64,000 nt of DNA from the NCBI GenBank assembly GCA_049276455.1, contig JBASWL010000224.1, positions 50,351 to 114,350 of the forward strand. The letters are read 5' to 3'. The notes below the pieces were generated by a model, which saw nothing but the letters and a program-made list of their open reading frames with translations, was not told where the DNA came from and made no database searches. Position 1 is the stretch's first letter, and the number at the start of each line of letters is the position of its first letter. Made by a program: the position numbers and the translations under genes. This stretch comes from Georgfuchsia sp. Lineage in GTDB: Bacteria > Pseudomonadota > Gammaproteobacteria > Burkholderiales > Rhodocyclaceae. Shown in pieces: positions 1,348 to 47,046 of the stretch.

Positions 1348-3561
1348 ATGGCGATCCAGCGCCTTAACGTACTAAAGAGGGCATTTCGCCTCCGCCTGGC
1401 TCGCATGAGGAAATCTTCAGGCGAGATCTCCTGTCGCGATAATTCGAGGTTTGCCAGGGCGCTTGCGGTATCGCTGCTGTTCCACGCCCTTGTGCTCATG
1501 GTTCACATCGGCATCCCCAGGCCAGACTCGCCTGGCCTCGATGCGCCTGGGCAGCAGCGGAGTGCCGGTGCCAATCCTTTGCATGTCGTGCTTGCCGCGC
1601 CATCCAGCCGCCCCGCTGTAGCCGCAAAGCCCAGCCGGGCTCCTCTCCGCCATGCACCAGCAAAGCCATTACCGTCGCCCCGCCGCAATTCCCCGCCGAT
1701 GACGGCACGGTCCGGTGTGGCCGCCAAACCGGTCAAACAGCCGGAATCGGTGGCCATGAATACAAGGGTTCTCGCGGTGGCTTCGGCGCTGGAAGCGGTA
1801 CGCAAAAAAGGGCAAAAGCCGGATAAAACCGTGGCTAGCCCAATAAATCACGCTGCACGCGTAAAAGCACATCCAAACATCATCGTTCAGAAGAACCCGA
1901 TTCGTGAAACGTTTACGGTGCCGAAACCTGTACCTGAAGGCACAGCGGATGTTGCTCGTCAGGGAACAAGGGAAGCGACAAGAACACAAGACCGCAGGCC
2001 AAAACGACCGAAGCAAAACAATAACGCAGTAATGGCATCCACCGCTGCTGAAACGGCTTCCCGCCGGGCTGCCAAGGCTGCTGTGAGACTGGCGCACAAG
2101 CAGGAACAGCGGTTGAAGGAAGCCGTGCGCCGCGCAAAGCAAGCGGAGAAGCGCAGGATTGCACGAAAGCAGAAAGAACAGAGGCTGGCAGCTGCCAGAT
2201 TGTTGGCCCAGCAGGAACGGGAGGCCCGGCGCCAGGCGGCCATGCGCCAGGCGCAGGAGGCCGAAGAGCGCAGACGCATTGAGCAGCAAGAGGCAGCACG
2301 GCAACTTGCAGCGGCGGCCGAGGCCAGAAAACAGGCAGAGGACGAAGTCCGCAGAATGGCAGAAGAGATGGATCGCCAGCAGATGGCGCTGATGGAAAAG
2401 CAACTATCCGAGCAATTGTCCGCAGCAGAATTGGCGGCACAACAGGCGCAGGAAATTGTGCAAGAAGAAGCCTTGCGTCAGGCACAGGCAGCGGAAGCCT
2501 TGAGGATCGAACAAGAACAACAGGAACAGGAAGCGCTTCGGCTGGCTGCGGAAGCCGAATCCCGCCAGCGCCTGGAGGAGCAACAGGTAGTGCTACAGCT
2601 GGCGGCAGAAACAGAAGCCAGGGAACAGGCAGTGTTGGAAGCCAGCATAATGGCAGCGGAGCTTGTCCGCCAGGAAGTTTCCATGTTGGAAAGCCAGCAG
2701 GAAGCTGCCTTGCAGCAGGCGCTTGCGGCACAAGCGCTCAGAGCTGACGAAGAAGCCGGGCTGCGGCAGGCCACGGAAGCAGCGGCACTGGCGCAAGCCG
2801 AGAAATCTGCCCGGCAGCAGGCTTTGGTGCTGGAGGCGTCTCGGAGTGCCGAAGCGGGCGGCGGTGAACGTAATGATGTGGGAACACAGGCGCCCTCCGG
2901 TACCGGCATGTCAGGTACCCAACTGGCATCGCGGGAGGGAGCGGCGGCTGGCGCCCGTTCTGCCGATGACAATCACGGACCGGGCGAAAACGGCAGCACC
3001 AATCCGGCGGGCAGTGGATCAGGCGGGCAAGCCAATGCCTCTGCAACGACCGGTAGCGGCTCGGCAAGTGGCGCCGGGCCGGGCAGCAAGCCGGCGAAGG
3101 GTGACGCAGGGAGCGGTCATGGCAATGATGAAATACGGGTGCCGAACCGCAAGGAAGGCAGCCGTCCTGGCGGCCAGACCGTCGTTGCCGGCAACAGCCA
3201 GCGCCGTGGAACATTGCTGGGCGGTTATCTGCCAGATGTGGAAGTCGTTATTTTCGCCGAGGTCTGGCGTCGCAACATCAATAGCAATGCGCCGTTCAGT
3301 CTGCTGCAGAAGGCGAAGGCAGAAGACTACAAAAATCCCTGGGTGACTGTTGCGTTGCGCAGCGACGGGAGCGTCGAGAACATCCGCTTCGATCACTCGA
3401 GCGGCGTGACGGCGATCGATGTCGCGGTTCGTCAAACCATCATGCTGCTGTCGCCCTATGACCCCTTTCCGCCGGAGTTGGCGGCGGAATACGACGTCAT
3501 CGACATACCGAGCATCTGGACCTTCAACAATGCCTTGCGCCTGATTTGGGGCGGTGGCTGA
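1348..3561 (+). CDS. Membrane-anchored TonB/TolA-like protein with an unusually long coiled-coil spacer
   Basis: 737-aa ORF. It has a basic N-terminus plus one hydrophobic helix (ALAVSLLFHALVLMV), then a Pro/Ala/Lys-rich segment. About 265 aa of E/Q/A/R-rich low complexity follow (aa ~235-500, nt ~2050-2850), then a Gly/Ser-rich linker. The C-terminal domain resembles the TonB/TolA C-terminal fold (VTVALRSDGSVENIRFDHSSGVTAIDVAVRQTIMLLSPYDPFP). Confidence 0.6.
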   Translation: MAIQRLNVLKRAFRLRLARMRKSSGEISCRDNSRFARALAVSLLFHALVLMVHIGIPRPDSPGLDAPGQQRSAGANPLHVVLAAPSSRPAVAAKPSRAPLRHAPAKPLPSPRRNSPPMTARSGVAAKPVKQPESVAMNTRVLAVASALEAVRKKGQKPDKTVASPINHAARVKAHPNIIVQKNPIRETFTVPKPVPEGTADVARQGTREATRTQDRRPKRPKQNNNAVMASTAAETASRRAAKAAVRLAHKQEQRLKEAVRRAKQAEKRRIARKQKEQRLAAARLLAQQEREARRQAAMRQAQEAEERRRIEQQEAARQLAAAAEARKQAEDEVRRMAEEMDRQQMALMEKQLSEQLSAAELAAQQAQEIVQEEALRQAQAAEALRIEQEQQEQEALRLAAEAESRQRLEEQQVVLQLAAETEAREQAVLEASIMAAELVRQEVSMLESQQEAALQQALAAQALRADEEAGLRQATEAAALAQAEKSARQQALVLEASRSAEAGGGERNDVGTQAPSGTGMSGTQLASREGAAAGARSADDNHGPGENGSTNPAGSGSGGQANASATTGSGSASGAGPGSKPAKGDAGSGHGNDEIRVPNRKEGSRPGGQTVVAGNSQRRGTLLGGYLPDVEVVIFAEVWRRNINSNAPFSLLQKAKAEDYKNPWVTVALRSDGSVENIRFDHSSGVTAIDVAVRQTIMLLSPYDPFPPELAAEYDVIDIPSIWTFNNALRLIWGGG

Positions 3562-4045
3562 TGGGCAGCGAAGGCAGGCGCTGACAGAGCCAGTGATCGA
3601 ATGAAAGCCGGCCCGGTCCGTGCAGCAGCGTCACCAGCAGCAGCATGCCCCATAGTATGTGGTCCTGAAGGCCAAGGTCCGATATGTCGGCAAACGAGAT
3701 TGCGGCGACCAGATTGACGATCGACAGTCCCGCTGCACCAAAGCGGCTGGCCAGCCCGAGCGTGAGCAGCAGCGGCAACCCCAATTCGCCCGCCGTGCCC
3801 ATCACTGCTGCGACATCGGGAGGCAGCAGCGGCACGTGGTACTCGTACTCGAACAGTTGCAGCGTTGTGCTCCAGTCGGAAATCTTGAGCCAGCCCGAGC
3901 GGAAGAAAACGCTGGCAACGTAGAGGCGAATGCCGAGATCGAACAGCGGCGTGATCCATTGTTCAATCCGCGCGATCACGCATTGTCCGAGCCGTATCGC
4001 CGTGCTTGCCGACAGTTTGCACAATGTTGCGTGGCAAGTTCTCAC
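3524..4045 (-). CDS. bufD: DoxX family inner-membrane protein (BufD/GigD-like)
   Basis: The frame is open from 4078. The best start is GTG at 4045, which forms a GTGA start/stop overlap with the upstream DUF2063 gene; alternatives are TTG 4024 and GTG 3979. Multiple hydrophobic helices and DoxX-like blocks are present (LGIRLYVASVFFRSGWLK, GELGLPLLLTLGLASRFGAAGL). It is the last gene of the DUF2282-DUF692-DUF2063 operon. Confidence 0.7.
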   Translation of the reverse strand: MRTCHATLCKLSASTAIRLGQCVIARIEQWITPLFDLGIRLYVASVFFRSGWLKISDWSTTLQLFEYEYHVPLLPPDVAAVMGTAGELGLPLLLTLGLASRFGAAGLSIVNLVAAISFADISDLGLQDHILWGMLLLVTLLHGPGRLSFDHWLCQRLPSLPISHRPKSGARHC

Positions 4046-4848
4046 GCCTGTCCCCCTTCCTCTTTTCCGGGCAGCCATGCCCGTACGAAGACACCATTAC
4101 CGGCGAAGCGTGCCAGCGCGGCGGCAAGATCGAATCCGGTCTCGGCTGCCTGCGCCGATGCGGCGGCAGTTTCGAGGCAGTCACTGCAGGCCAGCGCATC
4201 CAGAAATGCCGCTTCGCCGTGTGTCAGCGATTCGACATGGACCAGACCGTCGCGGCGCAGGATCGCCAGTCGTGCGCCCCGCGCGAAATCGACTTTCATC
4301 TCGCCGCCATAGCCCTCGGCATTGACGCGCCAGATGTCGGCCAGCGGCCACGCCGAGTCCATGCGCGCCAAGGCGGGGGTCAATGAGAAACACAATGCGC
4401 CATACTCCTCTGGCGGGCAGGCAGCGAGCCCGGACAGGTCGGTCTTCACATCGGAGGCGTAATAGACCTGCTGCACTTGCCATTCCAGCCGCGCCACGTC
4501 AGGCAGGTAGCCCAGTTTGCGGCCATGTGGCCATCCGGCGATGAAGTCGGCGAACGATTCGCCGTATTCGCTAAGGTCGCCGCTGACGCTGGGGTGTGCG
4601 CGGAAGTAGGCGCTTGCAACCTCGCGAAAGAAAGGCAGGCCGACAATCCGCGTCAGCACCGGATAGCTTGCTTGCAGCGCGCCGACCATGTTGCCGAGAA
4701 TGCTGCGGCGGTAGGCGGCAATGCGGCGGCGGCCGGTCTCGCCGGATTCCATCATGCAATCGAGCAACGCCTGTTCGGCATTCGCGCCGGCAACAATGCC
4801 GTCGTAAAAGCGCGTTTGCAGCTCAAATAGCTTAGGCAGCGCGGGCAT
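4042..4848 (-). CDS. bufC: DUF2063 domain protein, partner of the DUF692/MNIO enzyme (BufC/GigC-like)
   Basis: 268-aa ORF with N-terminal blocks (LQTRFYDGIV, AAYRRSILGNMVGALQASYPVLTRIVGLPFF, AYFRAHPSVSGDL) typical of DUF2063 proteins encoded next to DUF692. ATG at 4848 is preceded by GGGAGG and overlaps the upstream gene by 17 nt. Confidence 0.8.
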   Translation of the reverse strand: MPALPKLFELQTRFYDGIVAGANAEQALLDCMMESGETGRRRIAAYRRSILGNMVGALQASYPVLTRIVGLPFFREVASAYFRAHPSVSGDLSEYGESFADFIAGWPHGRKLGYLPDVARLEWQVQQVYYASDVKTDLSGLAACPPEEYGALCFSLTPALARMDSAWPLADIWRVNAEGYGGEMKVDFARGARLAILRRDGLVHVESLTHGEAAFLDALACSDCLETAAASAQAAETGFDLAAALARFAGNGVFVRAWLPGKEEGGQA

Positions 4849-5698
4849 GGCATGCCTCCCGCGTTGTGGTGAGCAGACGCTCGGCCTTGCCGGCCTCTGC
4901 CAGCAGCGTATCGAGCGCAGGAATATCGTTGTCCCACTCGATCAGGGTGGCGATCGGGCCGAAGCGGGCCAACGCATCGGCGTACAGTGCCCATACCGGT
5001 TCATAAACGGGGCGTGAATGGGTATCGATCAACAGCCCGTCTTCCTCCTCTTCGTAACCGGCGAGATGGATCTCGCCGACGCTGCCGACGGGGATCGCCG
5101 CAAGGTAGGCCTGTGCATCAAAACCGTGGTTGCAGGCATTGACATAAGTGTTGTTCACATCGAGCAGGATGCCGCAGCCAGTGCGCCGTGCCACGGCGGC
5201 GACGAAATCCCATTCCGGAATTTCCGCCCCGGCGAAGCGCAGGTAGCTCGAAACGTTCTCGACCAGAATGGTGCGGCCGAGAAAATCCTGGGTGCGGGCG
5301 ACGCGCTCGCACACATTGTCGAGCGCCTCCTGCGTGTAGGGTAGCGGCAGCAGGTCGTTGAGAAAGCGGCCGTTCACTGACGACCAGCACAGGTGTTCAG
5401 AGATCGCCGCCGGCTCGATGCGGCTGACCAGCGCCTTGAGCTTGTCGAGATGGCAGCGTGAAAGTTCGTCGACGGCGCCGAGCGAAAGCCCGACGCCGTG
5501 CAAACTGATGGGGTAGCGATCACGTACCATCTCCAGCACACGCAGCGGTTGACCACCGGCGCCGAAGAAGTTCTCGCTATGCACTTCGAGCCAGCCGATA
5601 TCGGGCGGCGTCTCCAGCACCTCGCGGTGGTGGGGCGCACGCAGGCCAATGCCGGCACTGGCGGGCAAAGTTGCAGCGGGTGTGTGCTGACGGTACAT
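4832..5698 (-). CDS. bufB: DUF692 / UPF0276 family multinuclear non-heme iron oxidative enzyme (MNIO; MbnB/BufB-like)
   Basis: 288-aa ORF with hallmark DUF692 blocks: GIGLRAPHH, WLEVHSENFF, ISLHGVGLSLG, SEHLCW, ILVENVSSY, GILLDVNNTYVNACNHGFD, GEIHLAG, LIDTHSRPV, LIEWDNDIP. It lies 17 nt downstream of the DUF2282 precursor gene. Confidence 0.9.
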   Translation of the reverse strand: MYRQHTPAATLPASAGIGLRAPHHREVLETPPDIGWLEVHSENFFGAGGQPLRVLEMVRDRYPISLHGVGLSLGAVDELSRCHLDKLKALVSRIEPAAISEHLCWSSVNGRFLNDLLPLPYTQEALDNVCERVARTQDFLGRTILVENVSSYLRFAGAEIPEWDFVAAVARRTGCGILLDVNNTYVNACNHGFDAQAYLAAIPVGSVGEIHLAGYEEEEDGLLIDTHSRPVYEPVWALYADALARFGPIATLIEWDNDIPALDTLLAEAGKAERLLTTTREACHARAA

Positions 5699-5715
5699 GA
5701 TGCCTGCCCGCCGGA

Positions 5716-6009
5716 TTACTTCTTCATGTCCATGGCGCCGTCGGGCATGGTGTTACCGCCCATCGTTTCGCAAGTGCCCTTGGGCACCAACTTGAAGTCA
5801 TTGGGATCGTTGTCAACCTTTGACTGGCCGGCGCAGGAATGCTTGCTGTATTTGCTGCTGCAGTCGTTCTGCCCGGCCTTGGCGACACCGAAGCATTTCT
5901 CCTTGGCCGCATCGTCGGCAAGGGCGCTGCCGCTGGCAGCGACGATGCCGAGCGCCAGCAGGCTGGCGACGGCAGACTGGATCAGGGTGTGTTTGGCTTG
6001 CATGTTCAT
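5716..6009 (-). CDS. bufA: DUF2282 family secreted Cys-rich precursor peptide (bufferin BufA1 / GigA-like)
   Basis: Trimmed to ATG 6009 (MNMQAKHTL...), which is preceded by AAGGAG. It carries a Sec-type signal peptide ending ...SGSALA. The core has four Cys in the DUF2282 pattern: [14 protein letters not shown]...SCAGQSKVD...LVPKGTCE. It sits immediately upstream of DUF692. Confidence 0.85.
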
Positions 6010-6107
6010 CTCCTTGAAGTTGGGTTGCTGAGGCACGCTTCGCGGATGCGAATCCTGTGTCTCTGCAAACTTCGTCGGAGTGCCCGCCGCTTCCTTACAC
6101 AGCACGC

Positions 6108-6137
6108 AAAAAAAATTCGCCGGATATTTAATCCGGA
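6108..6137 (-). terminator. Weak intrinsic terminator/attenuator between the anti-sigma gene and the precursor gene
   Basis: On the minus strand a CCGGAT-TAAAT-ATCCGG hairpin overlaps the anti-sigma stop codon and is followed by CGAA + T8. Confidence 0.4.
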
Positions 6138-6313
6138 TCAACGCCGCCGGGAAAATTGCGGCAGGCGACGCGCAGGAAATCCATCTGCCGCTCGAAAGCC
6201 GCGCAGGCGTTGCAAAGCATCATGTGGAAACGCAGGCTGATTCGCGCGGTCATGGACAGCCGCGAATCCTGGGCGCGGATCACCAGTTCGTGCACTTCCT
6301 TGCAATTCATCAT
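6128..6313 (-). CDS. Small zf-HC2 (ZAS-type) anti-sigma factor without a transmembrane segment
   Basis: 61 aa from ATG 6313 ([11 protein letters not shown]...). The H-x3-C-x2-C motif is present ([10 protein letters not shown]). The start overlaps the sigma-factor stop (ATGA). No hydrophobic stretch is long enough for a membrane helix. Confidence 0.7.
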
Positions 6314-6891
6314 ACTTTGTTGCCTCCGGGCTCGGCTCCGAACCATTTGAGTTGCAGGCACTCGCGCAGACGCATGCGCGCCCGATAAAGTACCACCCAG
6401 CAATTGGTCGTGGAAATGGCGAGTTCCTTACAGATCTCATCCGTCTCCAGGCCGAGAAACTCGCGCATCATGAATACGCGCGCCGTCTTCGCCGGCAGGA
6501 TTTCCACACAGGCCTCGAAGACATCGTAAAAACGCTTGTTCTCCAGTGTGCGCTGCGGGTCGCCCCAGTCGGATAGCGGCTCGGCCCAGTGGCCATCGGC
6601 ACGGAACAGCGCATCGAAATCGCGCTCCTCGCCATCGTCATCGATTGCCTGCAACGAAGGTTCGCGGGCACGACGGCGAATCTGGTCGACAATCTTGTTG
6701 CGCAAAATGGCGGTCAGCCAGGTGCGCAGAGAGGACTTGCCGGCAAACTGCTGTTCCCCGGTCAGGGCTGCGAGCAGGCACTCCTGCACGGCGTCCTCTG
6801 CCGCAGCCTCGTCGCGCAGCTGTAGGCGGGCAAACCGCAACAGCATCGGTCGCAGCCGGGCGGCTTCATTACTTAGGCTCTCATCGTCCAT
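6310..6891 (-). CDS. ECF (sigma-70 group 4) RNA polymerase sigma factor
   Basis: 193-aa ORF with region 2 (AEDAVQECLLAAL, SSLRTWLTAILRNKIVDQIRR) and region 4 (VFMMREFLGLETDEICKELAISTTNCWVVLYRARMRLRECL) blocks. Confidence 0.9.
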   Translation of the reverse strand: MDDESLSNEAARLRPMLLRFARLQLRDEAAAEDAVQECLLAALTGEQQFAGKSSLRTWLTAILRNKIVDQIRRRAREPSLQAIDDDGEERDFDALFRADGHWAEPLSDWGDPQRTLENKRFYDVFEACVEILPAKTARVFMMREFLGLETDEICKELAISTTNCWVVLYRARMRLRECLQLKWFGAEPGGNKV

Positions 6892-7098
6892 GGCGTGATT
6901 GTAGTCAATGACAGCGATATTGCCGATCCTTCAATTCCGTCAGGAAAACTGCAAGTTGCCTGATGGGTGAAACCACTGTTGTAATATGGCAACAACATGA
7001 GTGCCTGATGATGACAATCGCAGATAACCCTGATAGCATCGTCAATGCTGTACGGGTTTATTTATCTGGATTCATTAAATTCATATATGAGGTTATTA

Positions 7099-7626
7099 AT
7101 GAACATCACATTAACAAAGATTTCTGTTGCCATTGCTCTTGTCGTAGCCGCAACGGCTGCTAGTGCCCAGGTTTATGGCGAGGTTGCATACACCGGGCTT
7201 ACCTATGAAGAAGAGGGGGGCAAAGCCGATCTCGGCACGCTTGGCGCCACGATTGGCTATGAAATAAACAAGAATCTTGCGGTAGAAGGCATGTTTGCCG
7301 CAGGCGTCCAGGATGACGACGTTGATGTGGGTGGTTTCAACGTTAATGTCGACCTCAAGAACACCTATGGTGTCTTTCTGAAGCCGAAAGCAGAGCTCGC
7401 AGAAAACCTCGAGGTATATGCCAGGCTTGGTTGGGCCAAGAGCAAAATTGAAGCAAGCGCCTTCGGTCAGACGATGAGCGATTCGGGTAGTGATTTTGCC
7501 TACGGCGTTGGCCTGCAATACAGTTTCTCGCCTACGACTTATGTCACTGGCAGTTACACCAATCTCTACGATAAGGAAGGCACAACCATAGACGGCTGGG
7601 GTATCGGCATCGGCTACAAGTTCTGA
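7099..7626 (+). CDS. Small outer-membrane beta-barrel protein (OmpA-like transmembrane / porin family)
   Basis: Trimmed to ATG 7099, preceded by GAGG. The signal peptide ends AATAASA-QV. The sequence shows alternating amphipathic beta-strand pattern, a YGVGLQYSF block and a C-terminal aromatic residue (GIGYKF). Confidence 0.75.
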   Translation: MNITLTKISVAIALVVAATAASAQVYGEVAYTGLTYEEEGGKADLGTLGATIGYEINKNLAVEGMFAAGVQDDDVDVGGFNVNVDLKNTYGVFLKPKAELAENLEVYARLGWAKSKIEASAFGQTMSDSGSDFAYGVGLQYSFSPTTYVTGSYTNLYDKEGTTIDGWGIGIGYKF

Positions 7627-12502: not shown

Positions 12503-13135
12503 ATGTCCGTCATAAGTTCCCACGGGATTGCTCTTCACACCAGCCGGAGTGTGGCTGCATTACACGCGTTGCTACTCGCACTGGCCATTCTGCTGGCGGC
12601 CTGCAGCCCGGAACCCGCGCACTTTAATGCCATCAACGTAACCGGGGCCAACTGGGGCCGTGATTTCCATCTTGCCGATGCGAGTGGCAAGCCGCGTCAG
12701 CTGGCCGATTTCAAGGGCAAGGCGGTGGTGATTTTCTTCGGTTATGTGCAGTGCCCCGACGTTTGTCCTACCACCATGAACAAGCTGCACGAAGTGATGC
12801 GGCTGTTGGGCGACGAAGCGAATCGCGTCCAGGTGCTGTTCGTCACGCTTGATCCCGAGCGCGACACGCCGGAGTTGCTGGCGCAATACGTGCCTGCTTT
12901 CGATTCGCGCTTTCTCGGCCTTTACGGCAGTCTCGATGCGACGGCCGCGATGGCGAAAGACTACAGGGTTTTCTATCAGAAGCGGGCGGGATCAAAGCCC
13001 GGGCGCTATACGATCGATCATTCGTCGGGACTATATGCTTATGATCCGCAGGGCCGCCTGCGGCTTTTTATATCCAACAATGAAGAAGCGGCGAAGATTG
13101 CCGCCGACCTCGGGCAGTTATTGGCAGGACGCTGA
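12503..13135 (+). CDS. SCO1/SenC family copper chaperone (thioredoxin fold)
   Basis: It has a signal/anchor with LAAC, the CxxxC copper motif in FFGYVQCPDVCPTT, and a downstream conserved YTIDHSSGLY with His. Confidence 0.85.
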   Translation: MSVISSHGIALHTSRSVAALHALLLALAILLAACSPEPAHFNAINVTGANWGRDFHLADASGKPRQLADFKGKAVVIFFGYVQCPDVCPTTMNKLHEVMRLLGDEANRVQVLFVTLDPERDTPELLAQYVPAFDSRFLGLYGSLDATAAMAKDYRVFYQKRAGSKPGRYTIDHSSGLYAYDPQGRLRLFISNNEEAAKIAADLGQLLAGR

Positions 13136-13279
13136 TTTTCCAGATCAACCGGAAGCCGCAAGGCCGCAAGACTGTCTGCTGCAGTTGATTGTTGACGTCC
13201 CGCTACGCGTGGGTACGGAAACCTCAAATTGATTCACGTCAACAAAGTTACACATCACGCGAATTTTTTAGGCAACAAT

Positions 13280-14743
13280 TTATAAACCAAGGTCCGCCCA
13301 TAGCTCATCGATCCGCTGCTTTATCACAGTGTCCATAACGATGGGGCGACCCCATTCGCGCCGGGTTTCGGCGGGCCATTTGTTGGTGGCGTCAATGCCC
13401 ATCTTGCTGCCGAGTCCGGCCACCGGTGAGGCAAAGTCGAGATAGTCTATCGGCGTGTTGTCGGCGATGAGTGTGTCGCGCCTGGCATCAACGCGTGTGG
13501 TAATGGCCCAGACCACATCCTTCCAGTCACGGATATTCACGTCGTCGTCGGTGACGATGATGAACTTGGTGTACATGAACTGGCGCAGGAAGCTCCAGAT
13601 GCCGAACATCACGCGCTTGGCATGGCCGGGGTACTGCTTCTTCATGCTTACCAGGGCAACGCGGTAGGAACAGCCTTCGGGCGGCAGGTAGAAATCGGTG
13701 ATCTCGGGAAATTGCTTTTGCAGCAGTGGCACAAAGACTTCGTTCAGGGCGACGCCGAGCATGGCCGGCTCATCGGGTGGCTTGCCGGTGTAGGTGGAGT
13801 GATAGATCGGATCGCGGCGCATGGTCATGCGTTCGACGGTGAACACGGGGAATTCGGCCTGCTCGTTGTAGTAGCCGGTGTGGTCGCCATACGGCCCTTC
13901 CAATGCAGTTTCGCCGGGATGGATCACACCTTCGAGTACGATCTCCGCCCGCGCCGGCACTTGCAGATCTGAGCCGATGCACTTGACCAATTCGGTTTTG
14001 CCGCCGCGCAGCAGCCCGGCGAACTGATATTCCGATAGCGTATCCGGTACCGGCGTCACCGCGCCGAGTATTGTGGCCGGATCGCAGCCAAGCACCACGG
14101 CAATCGGAAACGGCTGACCGGGATTTTTTTCGCAATGATCGCGAAAGTCGAGCGCGCCGCCGCGCTGCGCGAGCCAGCGCATGATGAGCTTGTTTTGGCC
14201 AATCAGTTGCTGCCGGTAGATGCCAAGGTTTTGCCGTGTCTTCAACGGCCCGCGTGTGACCGTGAGACCCCAGGTGATCAGGGGCGCCACATCACCCGGC
14301 CAGCAGGTCTGGATCGGCAGACGCGACAGATCGACATCCTTGCCTTCCCACACCACTTCCTGACACGGCGCCGATGACACCACTTTCGGCGCCATGTTGA
14401 GCACCTGCTTCAGCAGCGGCAGTTTTCCCCAGGCATCCTTGATGCCCTTGGGCGGCTCGGGTTCCTTGAGATAGGCCAACAGCTTGCCGACTTCGCGCAG
14501 TGCGCCAATGTCTTCCTGGCCCATGCCCAGCGCAACGCGACGCGGCGTACCGAACAGGTTTCCGAGTACGGGAAGCGACGAGCCCTTGGGTTTTTCGAAC
14601 AGGATCGCCGGGCCACCGACACGCAGCACGCGGTCGCAGATCTCTGTCATTTCCAGTTTCGGATCGACTTCGACGGCGACGCGTTTTAGCTCGCCAATTT
14701 TTTCCAGTTGCGCGATAAAGTCGCGCAGGTCGTGATATTTCAT
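13280..14743 (-). CDS. ubiD: 4-hydroxy-3-polyprenylbenzoate decarboxylase UbiD
   Basis: 487-aa ORF with full-length UbiD-like blocks: [47 protein letters not shown]. Confidence 0.95.
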
Positions 14744-14805
14744 GTTGACGCGCAGCTTCGCAAGTGCCGCCTCGGCGGGAACAAATGCGCAAAGGCAAAT
14801 TGAAT

Positions 14806-14846
14806 GCCCCCCACCCCCATCCCCGCCCCAAGGGCGGGGTTACTGA
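14806..14846. repeat. REP-like C-rich palindromic element, copy A
   Basis: CCACCCCCAT followed by the perfect hairpin CCCCGCCC-CAA-GGGCGGGG and TTACTG. It lies downstream of ubiA. Related copies are at 44356 and 45621. Confidence 0.5.
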
Positions 14847-14893
14847 TTTGCTCACTGCGCTCGAATATCACAAGGCGCTCCGTTTTTGTATCT

Positions 14894-15778
14894 TCACGTT
14901 AGTAAATGTATGAGGTTGAGTTCCGCTACGATACCCGCAAACACCGCAGCACCGAACCAGTTGTTGTGCAGGAATGCCTTGAAGCAGCGTTGGCGGTCAC
15001 GGCTGCGGATCAGGGTGTAGTGATAGATGGCAATGCCGGCGGCGACTGCCAACCCGGCAAAGTAGGCGGCTCCATAGTGCAGCTTGTACCCTACGGTAGC
15101 CAGAATGCTTAATGCAATGAGGTAGCACAGCATCACCGCAACGATATCGTAGCGGCCAAAGGTAATGGCTGAGGTCTTGATGCCGATCTTGAGATCGTCC
15201 TCGCGATCCACCATCGCATATTCGGTGTCGTAGGCAATGGTCCAGAAGATGTTTGCCAGCAGCAGCGTCCAGGCAATCGGGGGTACATGTTCCAGTATGG
15301 CAGCGAAGGCCATCGGGATGCCGAAACCGAAGGCAACACCGAGATAGGCTTGCGGTATGGCGAGAAAGCGCTTGGTGAAGGGGTAGCTCACGGCGAGGAA
15401 AACGGCGGCAAAAGAGAGGTAGATCACCAACGGTGGCAGCCACAGGATCAGCAGCAGGGCGCAAAGCGAAAGACTGCCAGCCAGCCCCATAGCTTCCTTG
15501 GTAGACACCCGGCGCGCAGCGAGCGGCCGGTTTTTGGTGCGTTCAACAAGCGGATCAAAGTCGCGGTCGGCGTAGTCGTTGATCACGCAGCCAGCAGAGC
15601 GCATCAGCGCTGTGCCCAGCACGAAAACCCAGACGAGGGGCCAATAGGGGTGGCCTTGGCTGGCAATCCACAGCGCCCATAGCGTTGGCCACAGCAGTAG
15701 CAGGATGCCGATCGGTTTGTCGAGCCGCATCAGCTTCTCGTAGAGATCGAGGCGTTGCTTGATCACGGTGATGTTCAT
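14894..15778 (-). CDS. ubiA: 4-hydroxybenzoate polyprenyltransferase UbiA
   Basis: Trimmed to ATG 15778 ([36 protein letters not shown]). The UbiA motif [13 protein letters not shown] is present. The start overlaps the ubiC stop (ATGA). Confidence 0.9.
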
Positions 15779-16293
15779 GGTTCGAGCCGGCAGATTGCGG
15801 GCAGGAATACTTCGGTTACCAGTAGCGGCGCACCACGCTTGTAAAACGCCGAGCGGCGCGCCCAGAGCGGGAATTTGGTTTGTGGCAAGGCCTGCAGGAT
15901 GCGCTGCCCGAGCGGGTCGATCGCAGTTACAGCACGATAGTGCAGGGGATGACGCACTATGGAACGATCGGCGAACAGCAACTCGGCCAGCGGCCGCGAA
16001 CCGAGGCCACGGACCGCGCGCCACGGACCGCGCGTGCGGCGCTGCGAGACCACGCTATGAGCAAATACCAATGGCACATCGCCTTCCATTAGCAGAACTT
16101 CGCGCACCGTTACGCCGCGACGATGCCCCAACAGGACTCTCTCCTCCGGCAAGGCGGACATGCAACGCTGTACCAGCCGGCGCACGCGGAAGTCATGCCC
16201 GGCGCGGCGGATATGCGCCGTCAGCGAGCCTCCGGCAGCAAGCCAGGCCGCAAGGCGGCGATCGTGCGTAAGGTGAAGTGTCCAGTGTTTCAT
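15775..16293 (-). CDS. ubiC: Chorismate pyruvate-lyase UbiC
   Basis: 172-aa ORF immediately upstream of and overlapping ubiA. Chorismate-lyase-like blocks are present: [32 protein letters not shown]. Confidence 0.8.
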
Positions 16294-28257: not shown

Positions 28258-28686
28258 ATGGAGTGGGTTATGGAATGCACGGTTCGCTGGCATGATGGGA
28301 TGAGTTTCATTGCTGAAACCGGGAGCGGCCACCTCGTCGCGATGGATGGCGCTCCAGAAGCCGGCGGGCGCAATCTCGCCCCGCGCCCGATGGAACTGTT
28401 GCTGGCAGGCGCTGGCGCTTGCACGGCATTCGATGTCGTGCTGATTTTAAAGCGTAGCCGGCAGGAAATTTCCGGTTGCGAAGCAAAGCTGCTAGCCGAG
28501 CGCGCCGAGGTTGATCCAAAAGTCTTTACCAAAATCAATTTTCACTTCGTGGTAACTGGTCGCGGGCTAAAACCGGAAACCGTGGAACGTGCGATCAAGC
28601 TATCTGCGGAAAAGTACTGTTCGGCATCCATCATGCTCGGCAAGACCGCCGAGATAACCCATACTTGGGAAATCGTTGATGGCTAG
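28258..28686 (+). CDS. OsmC/Ohr family peroxiredoxin-like protein
   Basis: 142 aa with both conserved Cys (LLAGAGACTAFDVV and KYCSAS). The start is 28258 or 28270. Confidence 0.85.
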   Translation: MEWVMECTVRWHDGMSFIAETGSGHLVAMDGAPEAGGRNLAPRPMELLLAGAGACTAFDVVLILKRSRQEISGCEAKLLAERAEVDPKVFTKINFHFVVTGRGLKPETVERAIKLSAEKYCSASIMLGKTAEITHTWEIVDG

Positions 28687-29306
28687 AGATAGTAGGCGGT
28701 ACGCGTCATCGCGCCGGAAACCACACGCATCGCGCACTTGAACGGTGGCGGTAACTCCTTTGCGCCTAACCGCCGTGCCGTTTCGGCATGGCCGATTTCG
28801 TCCATCTTCATCTGCTCGATAATTTTGCGTGATCGCTCGTCCTGCAATGGCAGGCTACCAAGGTGACTTTGCAAATGCTGTTCGACCTGTCGTTCGGTTT
28901 CGACAAGAAAACCAAGATTCCATTCGTCGCCACATTTGCCGGCTATGACACCCATCGCCAGCGAGCCCACATACCAGAGCGGATTGAGAAAGCTCTTGCG
29001 GCTGCCAAGCTCAGCTAGGCGGCGCTCAGTCCAGTTAAGGTGCTCGGTTTCCTCGAAGGCTGCGTATTCCAGAGCTTGTCGCATTTCTGGATTGTGCGAA
29101 GTCAAGCTTTGGCCCTGATAGAGTGCCTGCGCACAAATTTCCCCACAGTGATTGATGCGCATCAGCGCTGCAGCATGGCGCTTCTCGGCCTCGTTTAGAT
29201 CGGCCTCTGGCAAGGAGGCGCCGGGAACTTCGCGACGACTGGATGCAGGTACGAATACCGTGCGCAGCGCCTTGTCGAATTCAGTAATCAGTTGGTCCAG
29301 CATCAT
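28683..29306 (-). CDS. coq7: Demethoxyubiquinone hydroxylase Coq7 (di-iron)
   Basis: 207 aa: AALMRINHCGEICAQALYQGQ, EETEHLNW, DEIGHAE (E-x-x-H di-iron motifs). Confidence 0.9.
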   Translation of the reverse strand: MMLDQLITEFDKALRTVFVPASSRREVPGASLPEADLNEAEKRHAAALMRINHCGEICAQALYQGQSLTSHNPEMRQALEYAAFEETEHLNWTERRLAELGSRKSFLNPLWYVGSLAMGVIAGKCGDEWNLGFLVETERQVEQHLQSHLGSLPLQDERSRKIIEQMKMDEIGHAETARRLGAKELPPPFKCAMRVVSGAMTRTAYYL

Positions 29307-46383: not shown

Positions 46384-47046
46384 ATGAGGTCGAAGCATTT
46401 CCTGCTGCTGTTGCTGATCCTGCTCGCCGGCACACTTGCACAGGCCAATGAGCCTGCCAAGACAGAGCCATCAGCGGCCTTCAAGGCCGACCCGATCAAG
46501 GGTAAGCAAATTGCGAGTGGCGTTTGTGCCACCTGCCACAATGCCGATGGCAACAGCAATATCTCCACCAATCCGAAGCTGGCCGGACAAGGCGCCGAAT
46601 ATCTCTACAAGCAATTGAGGAATTTCAGGCCGGTCGATGGCAAGCCTGCCGAGCGTCCCAATGCGGTGATGGGCGGTATGGTAATGACACTCTCCTCGGA
46701 CGAGGACATGCGCAACGTCGCAGCCTGGTTCGCCTCGCAAACCCAGAAGGGTGGTCAAGCCAAGAACAGGGACACAGTTGAGTTTGGCCAGAAACTCTAT
46801 CGGAGTGGCGACCTGACCAAAGGCCTGCCCGCCTGTGCCGGTTGCCACGGACCCGCTGGCGCCGGCATTCCCGCGCAATATCCCCGCATTGGCGGCCAAC
46901 ATGCAGACTACATTGAAGCGCAATTAAAAATATTCCGTTCGGGTGAACGCGCCAACGATCCAAACAAGATGATGCGCCTGGTCGCAATCAAGATGACGGA
47001 TGCCGAAATCAAGGCGGTGGCCGATTACATCGCCGGCCTTCATTAA
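46384..47046 (+). CDS. Dihaem cytochrome c4
   Basis: It has a signal peptide and two CxxCH motifs (CATCH, CAGCH) with downstream Met ligand regions. Confidence 0.85.
   Translation: MRSKHFLLLLLILLAGTLAQANEPAKTEPSAAFKADPIKGKQIASGVCATCHNADGNSNISTNPKLAGQGAEYLYKQLRNFRPVDGKPAERPNAVMGGMVMTLSSDEDMRNVAAWFASQTQKGGQAKNRDTVEFGQKLYRSGDLTKGLPACAGCHGPAGAGIPAQYPRIGGQHADYIEAQLKIFRSGERANDPNKMMRLVAIKMTDAEIKAVADYIAGLH

Follow-up and report, generated by a model that had tools for sequence, protein, structure and literature searches.

A Buf1-type bufferin cluster from a Georgfuchsia-like genome, its probable control by a dedicated ECF sigma factor, and a conserved candidate promoter inside the sigma gene

Control of bufferin-type gene clusters by extracytoplasmic function (ECF) sigma factors has already been established experimentally, in the Neisseria sigmaE-MseR and Haemophilus influenzae RpoE2-HrsE systems. 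In Neisseria, sigmaE and MseR control NMB2140-2145, which encode a DoxX-like protein, three proteins then of unknown function (one of them NGO1945/DUF2063), sigmaE and MseR itself, whose functional residues are Cys4, His30, Cys34 and Cys37 (PMC2893595). In H. influenzae, RpoE2 and HrsE, a 67-residue anti-sigma factor of the zinc-associated anti-sigma (ZAS) type, respond to HOCl and H2O2 and control msrAB together with a DoxX/DUF692/DUF2063 cluster; the region upstream of rpoE2 is barely RpoE2-dependent, and the RpoE2-HrsE pair was called ECF group 13 (PMC7907618). In Caulobacter Buf1, BufB and BufC turn the two central cysteines of BufA1 into 5-thiooxazoles, the outer cysteines form a disulfide and the Sec signal peptide is cleaved; the resulting bufferin has a very high affinity for Cu(II) and Cu(I), and the system does not need DoxX (PMC11626156). 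A 2025 survey counted genes for sigma factors, and NrsF, among the components of Buf1 clusters (PMC12452194). Here, a 64,000-nucleotide stretch of DNA from Georgfuchsia sp. (contig JBASWL010000224.1, positions 50,351 to 114,350; the window) was analyzed, in which six minus-strand genes at 3524-6891 encode an ECF sigma factor, a ZAS anti-sigma factor, BufA, BufB, BufC and DoxX. The kind of system is already established, ECF control included, the same six families being present in Neisseria. What is new here is that the cognate promoter motif recurs, conserved, inside the sigma gene, the sole element of the cluster that might repay experiment.

The locus very probably comprises a Buf1-type bufferin cluster (bufA-bufB-bufC-doxX) and its own ECF sigma factor, held inactive by a 61-residue cytoplasmic ZAS anti-sigma factor of the MseR/HrsE type. 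Families were assigned by curated profile hidden Markov model (HMM) thresholds (Pfam and NCBIfam). The sigma factor (6310-6891; 193 residues) has regions 2 and 4 only, matches Pfam Sigma70_r2 and Sigma70_r4_2, and scored 266 bits against TIGR02943 (cut-off 162) and 265 bits against NF009173 (cut-off 255); its placement within the ECF scheme is that of NCBIfam TIGR02943 and PRK12520 alone. The anti-sigma factor (6128-6313) matched NF052368 antisigmaE at 63 bits (cut-off 50) and, weakly, Pfam zf-HC2. Its zinc ligands, Cys4, His30, Cys34 and Cys37 (C-x25-H-x3-C-x2-C), occupy positions identical to those of MseR (PMC2893595), and the set is kept in 76 of 77 unique homologues. The pair has the form that defines ECF/ZAS modules, a two-domain sigma factor followed directly by a soluble anti-sigma factor of ~60-70 residues. 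No match to NrsF (DUF1109, PF06532) was found among the proteins of the locus or its neighbors; the anti-sigma factor here is a ZAS peptide.

The four remaining genes are those of a Buf1-type cluster: a BufA1-type precursor, an adjacent BufB-type multinuclear non-heme iron oxidase (MNIO), a partner protein with DUF2063 and RRE-like domains, and a closing DoxX. BufA (5716-6003; 95 residues) scored 87 bits (cut-off 22) against PF10048, the DUF2282/BufA1 family, for which BufA1 is the present Pfam label. It begins with a Sec signal peptide bearing an AxA motif, with a predicted cut between ALA and DD after residue 29, which leaves a 66-residue core containing Cys37, Cys48, Cys57 and Cys78. Conservation was scored in the best 120 of 1871 homologues found; the four cysteines are invariant in all 120, and 119 have exactly four. 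The C-terminus (5716-5760) is a Met-rich tail that could provide extra Cu(I) ligands, and M-x-M-K-K-like tails are common in the clade. BufB (4832-5698), the predicted bufferin maturase, scored 395 bits against the equivalog model NF050167 MNIO_BufB (cut-off 310), in a match that spans profile positions 1-261 of 262, and 365 bits against PF05114 (MbnB_TglH_ChrH); its relatives in the PDB are 3BWW, TglH and MbnB. BufC (4042-4848), with an N-terminal DUF2063 and a C-terminal RRE-like domain, matched PF09836 (DUF2063) at 72 bits. Sequence searches of BufC against the PDB, alone and as two profiles, gave nothing significant (3DEE, E 0.92). An AlphaFold model from the single sequence reached a predicted local distance difference test (pLDDT) score of 37.6, which an alignment of 56 homologues raised to 95.2, and the best fold matches of the latter AlphaFold2 model were TglI (8HCI_A, E 3e-5) and NGO1945 (3DEE, E 9e-3, TM 0.66). 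TglI is the partner of the MNIO TglH, and the modeled fold is the DUF2063 plus RRE architecture expected for a bufferin partner protein (PMC12452194). The last gene, doxX or bufD (3524-4045), encodes a DoxX-family membrane protein (PF07681, 63 bits) that scored 57 bits against the HvfX model, under its cut-off of 80. Sequence searches found no PDB relatives of BufA or of the anti-sigma factor.

All four proteins assigned to DUF2282, DUF692, DUF2063 and DoxX in a preliminary description of this DNA match those families by profile HMM, and the signal-peptide-bearing four-cysteine precursor that it noted is borne out by the PF10048 match and the invariant cysteines. Its view of a bufferin-type cluster under ECF control is likewise supported by the curated HMMs, by the high-confidence BufC model and by synteny in 80 related loci. 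Two other peptide systems were considered and rejected. Methanobactin (MbnABC) is incompatible with a score of 66 bits against TIGR04159 MbnB (cut-off 325) and with a DUF2282 precursor in place of MbnA, and an HvfA/oxazolin cluster with a score of 249 bits against NF003818 HvfB (cut-off 360) and a BufA that has no EGKCG repeats. In the NCBIfam search, BufB fell far under the cut-offs of the HvfB, ApyH, MbnB and ChrH models.

Direct reading of the minus strand of 3400-7100 confirmed the six co-directional open reading frames, and a public gene call made independently on this DNA agrees on sigma (193 residues), anti-sigma (61 residues) and BufA (95 residues). The gene order and the three overlaps reported previously are all present in the sequence: an ATGA overlap between sigma and anti-sigma (6313-6310), a 17-nucleotide overlap between bufB and bufC (4832-4848), with a ribosome-binding site GGGAGG 6 nucleotides before the bufC ATG, and a GTGA overlap between bufC and doxX (4045-4042), where the doxX Shine-Dalgarno sequence is GGAAGGGGGA. 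The same report called the six genes packed with overlaps, which holds for these junctions but not for the other two, since bufA and bufB are separated by 17 nucleotides and anti-sigma and bufA by 124. The bufA start is the second ATG, the first being absent from some relatives, and the tight bufC junction of doxX, with its N-terminal extension of 20-33 residues, is also found in relatives.

The synteny was followed in 80 genomic loci encoding BufB relatives with 52-81% identity to the window BufB. Almost all contain bufA-bufB-bufC, mostly followed by doxX, and 22 of the 80 have an adjacent sigma gene (product at least 45% identical to the window sigma), which is upstream and co-directional in 17, downstream and convergent in 4 and divergent in 1. 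Judged by this recurrence in related loci, the arrangement is far beyond chance. In a second set, 80 metagenomic loci retrieved with the sigma factor as the query, the ZAS anti-sigma gene lies directly downstream of sigma in nearly all, and bufA was found downstream of the pair in none of the 43 loci having at least 1.5 kb of downstream sequence, which indicates that the pair is a module of its own. On the evidence of these sequences, it is tied to bufferin genes only in some lineages. In a few of the sigma-found loci (L084, 5256-6065; L085; L092, 2385-3630) the pair is followed by a precursor with EGKCG repeats (oxazolin/HvfA-like) and a distant MNIO with 29-39% identity to BufB. Because the same pair precedes EGKCG-type precursors, one regulator family appears to serve different MNIO peptide clusters.

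The 124-nucleotide gap before bufA contains a predicted sigma-dependent promoter, GTAAGGAAG-N12-CGACGAAG (6070-6098, minus strand), with a predicted start at A 6064. The motif fits the Neisseria sigmaE consensus, GTMAGBWTT-N12-13-CGTCTAAH followed six bases further on by an A (PMC2893595), and shares that A at a distance of 6 nucleotides. When the intergenic region is aligned with those of five relatives, TGTAAGGA and CGAC.AA stand out as the sole invariant blocks besides the Shine-Dalgarno sequence and the ATG. With at most one mismatch, GTAAGGAA-N13-CGAC occurs exactly twice in the 64-kb window versus 0.14 expected. It precedes bufA in many related loci, some of them with no sigma gene nearby, and it was found upstream of bufB in 22 of 22 loci with an adjacent sigma compared to 13 of 58 without. 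Further copies lie 1.7-3 kb from bufA in loci where a nearby sigma is absent (L003, 2803-2829; L005, 2827-2853; L001, 5278-5305; four sites in L052), and these distant copies may mark further members of the regulon. Ahead of the promoter, a hairpin CCGGAT-N5-ATCCGG spans the anti-sigma stop codon and is followed by a T8 run (6106-6136, minus strand), a terminator-like match. Its role is ambiguous, and it could be an intrinsic terminator or an A/T-rich UP element of the bufA promoter. A small hairpin in the bufA 5′ untranslated region, TTCGC-ATCC-GCGAA (6039-6052, minus strand), is kept in close relatives, with altered loop or stem bases in L002 (TTCGCA-ct-TGCGAA) and L081 (TTCGC-gctt-GCGAA); an Rfam scan of 3300-7300 gave no family, for this hairpin or elsewhere.

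The second copy of the motif in the window, GTAAGGAAC-N12-CGACCAAT (6403-6431, minus strand), lies within the sigma reading frame, in region-4 codons reading C-K-E...T-T-N, ~85 nucleotides upstream of the anti-sigma start. Its sequence and spacing are identical to those of the intergenic bufA promoter. Nearly every sigma homologue has the internal motif at the equivalent place (L002, L007, L008, L011-L014, L017, L019, L020, L022, L024-L026, L028, L043, L056, L065 and most of L082-L160), and among them are sigma/anti-sigma pairs that lack bufferin genes nearby. Constraint on synonymous sites was measured by a gene-wide third-base scan of 95 unique sigma homologues, whose counts are phylogenetically non-independent. 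The Cys codon is TGT in 91 of the 95 (34 expected, z 12.2), although elsewhere in the same genes TGC outnumbers TGT by 38 to 13. Codon 161 ends in CG in all 95 (third-base G expected in 38, z 12.1) while its residue varies among T, A, P and S, the Glu codon is GAA in 80 (36.7 expected, z 9.2), and the Lys codon is always AAG. The Cys, codon 161 and Glu sites rank 1, 2 and 4 in third-base constraint across the gene, and neighboring synonymous sites vary freely. As synonymous third bases are held and the residue at codon 161 is variable, protein sequence alone is insufficient to explain the conservation of the motif. An internal sigma-dependent promoter is the best reading of 6403-6431, the conservation of the motif having been computed and its promoter function being predicted from it. 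No description of an internal promoter in this sigma family was found in the searchable literature.

The sigma gene itself appears to be transcribed differently. A sigma-70-like promoter, TCGGCA-N17-TACAAT (6898-6926, minus strand; 9 of 12 matches), has a -10 element that ends 6 nucleotides before the sigma ATG (6891), and the sequence before this ATG contains no Shine-Dalgarno site. The same geometry of a -10-like hexamer, 6 nucleotides and an ATG is seen in L081 (~700-730) and L017 (~3800-3828), the hexamers before the sigma ATG being TACAAT, TAGAAT or TAGAGT. Because of this spacing and the absence of a ribosome-binding site, the sigma/anti-sigma mRNA is predicted to be leaderless, and the sequence suggests a leaderless transcript of basal level. 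No sigmaE-type motif was found upstream of the sigma gene in the window or in relatives, where the upstream regions are not conserved. A degenerate TGAAGGAT...TGTCAT near 6915-6888 was considered as a sigmaE promoter and rejected, as it is not conserved.

These observations bear on how the six genes are transcribed and on whether the internal element is a promoter at all. Transcription as one operon from a single promoter upstream of sigma was implied by the preliminary description. It would bring classical positive autoregulation and would agree with the co-directional, tightly spaced genes and with Neisseria, whose six genes share one transcript from a sigmaE promoter. Such an arrangement seems improbable here, where no sigmaE-type motif precedes the sigma gene or those of relatives and where the 124-nucleotide gap before bufA holds a conserved sigma-type promoter, a hairpin and a T run; in addition, the region upstream of H. 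influenzae rpoE2 is barely RpoE2-dependent. The six genes probably do not form one simple operon, given the predicted sigma-type promoters before bufA and inside the sigma gene. The internal element could also have arisen as a by-product, whether of peptide conservation in region 4, codon context or a signal at the RNA level. Conservation of the peptide ICKE..(S/T)x(T/S)NCW is high in its own right, shared ancestry makes the counts non-independent, and TGC replaces TGT in L081, where the -10 element is also changed, and in four loci with the convergent arrangement. On the other hand, codon 161 retains its CG ending in 95 of 95 homologues despite the change of residue, the Cys codon is TGT against the preference of the rest of the gene, these are the strongest third-base constraints of the entire gene, and sequence and spacing are those of the bufA promoter and the Neisseria consensus. 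A by-product is accordingly considered possible but rather unlikely. The proposal that selection keeps, within region 4, a promoter for the sigma factor's own use that boosts the anti-sigma factor (and here the bufferin genes) but not sigma, and that with the leaderless basal mRNA makes up a feedback or pulse design, is given an even chance.

In the scheme suggested by these features, a weak sigma-70-type promoter would produce the leaderless sigma/anti-sigma mRNA, and the ATGA overlap would couple translation, such that sigma is made together with its inhibitor. By analogy with MseR, RsrA and HrsE, sigma would be freed when the Cys4/Cys34/Cys37 zinc site of its inhibitor is attacked by a thiophilic metal, for instance Cu(I), or by thiol-reactive stress from HOCl, chlorite or H2O2. 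RNA polymerase carrying free sigma would then transcribe bufABC-doxX from the predicted promoter before bufA and, from the putative internal one, the anti-sigma gene and by read-through the buf genes. Since the inhibitor but not sigma would be raised, the outcome would be negative feedback and fast shut-off, the extra anti-sigma resetting the switch. In the cytoplasm, BufC would bind the precursor and the iron- and O2-dependent BufB would turn Cys48 and Cys57 into 5-thiooxazoles. The peptide would be exported by Sec and cut after Ala29, Cys37 and Cys78 would form a disulfide, and the 66-residue product would chelate Cu(I)/Cu(II) in the periplasm, all as in Caulobacter Buf1 (PMC11626156).

Several points weigh against this scheme. 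The closest relative, L081, lacks the internal motif (TGC; ACG GCC), and its loss indicates that the site is dispensable there. The terminator call is weak, the hairpin folding no better than shuffled sequence (z -0.63). Residue 49 of BufA (5857-5859, NDCSS), which follows the second core cysteine, a predicted site of modification, is Ser, where 94% of the 120 relatives have Gly. The described Georgfuchsia species is a strict anaerobe, while MNIO catalysis needs O2. Finally, H2O2, diamide and singlet oxygen brought no response from Neisseria MseR (PMC2893595).

On comparison with homologous systems, what triggers the cluster and what it serves physiologically may be copper, reactive chlorine or oxidative stress, or both. 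A periplasmic copper-buffering role was proposed earlier, and copper is one candidate for the inducing signal. HOCl/H2O2 induce the H. influenzae system, however, and thiol-oxidative stress may take the place of copper as the trigger here. The main role would then perhaps be defense of the envelope against reactive chlorine or oxidative stress, with copper binding secondary or a means of limiting copper-catalyzed oxidative damage. Consistent with such a role, the H. influenzae DoxX cluster is HOCl-induced through RpoE2 alongside msrAB (PMC7907618), transposon fitness data show that DUF692/DUF2063 mutants of three bacteria are chlorite-sensitive (10.1101/072470), and the anti-sigma factor is of the RsrA-like thiol-switch type. 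However, the direct biochemistry and growth phenotypes of Buf1 concern copper (PMC11626156), gig/buf operons are metal-induced in Cupriavidus, Legionella and Caulobacter, and the two roles are not mutually exclusive; chlorine defense as the main role is therefore viewed as a tentative and somewhat unlikely alternative. Older proposals, drawn from the NGO1945 structure (PMC2954202) and from fitness data, would make BufB and BufC signaling or regulatory proteins, DUF2063 being DNA-binding or an anti-anti-sigma factor, instead of peptide-modifying enzymes. This is highly improbable. Published reconstitution had BufB and BufC install thiooxazoles on BufA1 in vitro, the best fold match of the BufC model is TglI, which partners the MNIO TglH, and the window BufB matches the BufB equivalog, so that published biochemistry on homologues has largely refuted the idea already.

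The surroundings give no sign of a copper island. A plus-strand gene at 1348-3561 encodes a 737-residue protein with a long repetitive middle rich in Ala, Glu and Gln and, at its C-terminal end, a weak TonB_C-type region; the gene is convergent with doxX, and the two overlap by 38 nucleotides (3524-3561). The other flanks (a divergent outer membrane protein beta-barrel gene, DUF805 and a phosphonate-type ABC transporter) are ordinary chromosome, and the rest of the sampled window is housekeeping. A SCO1 copper chaperone and a cytochrome c4 had also been pointed out in the preliminary description. Both genes are present, but distance and neighbors leave them unlinked to the cluster, and a functional link was rejected on these grounds. 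SCO1/SenC (12503-13135) is ~5.6 kb away and has as its neighbors, on the opposite strand, UbiD and a UbiA-family prenyltransferase; this group (12503-16024) looks like a context of quinones or of respiratory-chain assembly, with no relation to the buf locus, and the diheme cytochrome c (46384-47046) is 40 kb from the cluster. Elsewhere in the window is a gene for COQ7 (28683-29306), a ubiquinone hydroxylase that depends on O2.

With this locus, a family of thousands of members gains another uncharacterized bufferin, encoded in a Georgfuchsia-like metagenome-assembled genome of the Rhodocyclales. It is also a clean example linking two literatures that have not been explicitly joined, that of bufferins and MNIOs (copper) and that of the Neisseria/Haemophilus sigmaE-MseR/HrsE systems (HOCl, oxidative stress). 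A real internal promoter would account for the weak autoregulation of RpoE2-type sigma genes, offer a simple design rule for resetting a switch and depart from the positive autoregulation typical of ECF sigma factors.

The gig and buf operons that had been offered as precedent share the same core, but the closest precedent is not gig/buf alone, as the sigmaE-MseR operon of Neisseria meningitidis and N. gonorrhoeae (NMB2140-2145 / NGO1948-1943) shares all six families: DoxX, DUF2282, DUF692, DUF2063, ECF sigma and ZAS anti-sigma. The promoter motif GTAAGG(T/A)T-N12-13-CG(T/A)C is common to both. In Neisseria the order is doxX-bufA-bufB-bufC-sigma-antisigma behind one autoregulated promoter, whereas here it is sigma-antisigma-bufA-bufB-bufC-doxX, with the motif before bufA and inside the sigma reading frame and none upstream of sigma. 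H. influenzae RpoE2-HrsE is similar in its small cytoplasmic ZAS anti-sigma factor co-transcribed with sigma, in its control of a DoxX/COG3767/DUF692/DUF2063 cluster, and in a sigma gene whose upstream region is barely sigma-dependent. It differs in that its cluster is unlinked to the sigma gene and in that its precursor is COG3767 (PMC7907618), not DUF2282. Its regulon also has msrAB, which is not present in this window. The COG3767 precursor we take to be of the HvfA/oxazolin type. Caulobacter vibrioides buf1ABCD likewise encodes a four-cysteine DUF2282 precursor bearing a Sec signal peptide, the MNIO, the DUF2063/RRE protein and DoxX, but is regulated by SigF together with the membrane anti-sigma factor NrsF (DUF1109) in place of the ZAS peptide. 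The gig operons of Cupriavidus metallidurans and Legionella have the same four-gene core, induced there by Au and Cu, with a regulator of different or unknown type, and in Cupriavidus they contribute little to resistance. In Escherichia coli, a sigmaE-dependent promoter inside rpoE drives rseA, which would be the closest parallel to a cognate promoter within the sigma gene that feeds the anti-sigma gene; that system belongs to another ECF group, has a membrane anti-sigma factor and carries an additional sigmaE-dependent promoter upstream of rpoE.

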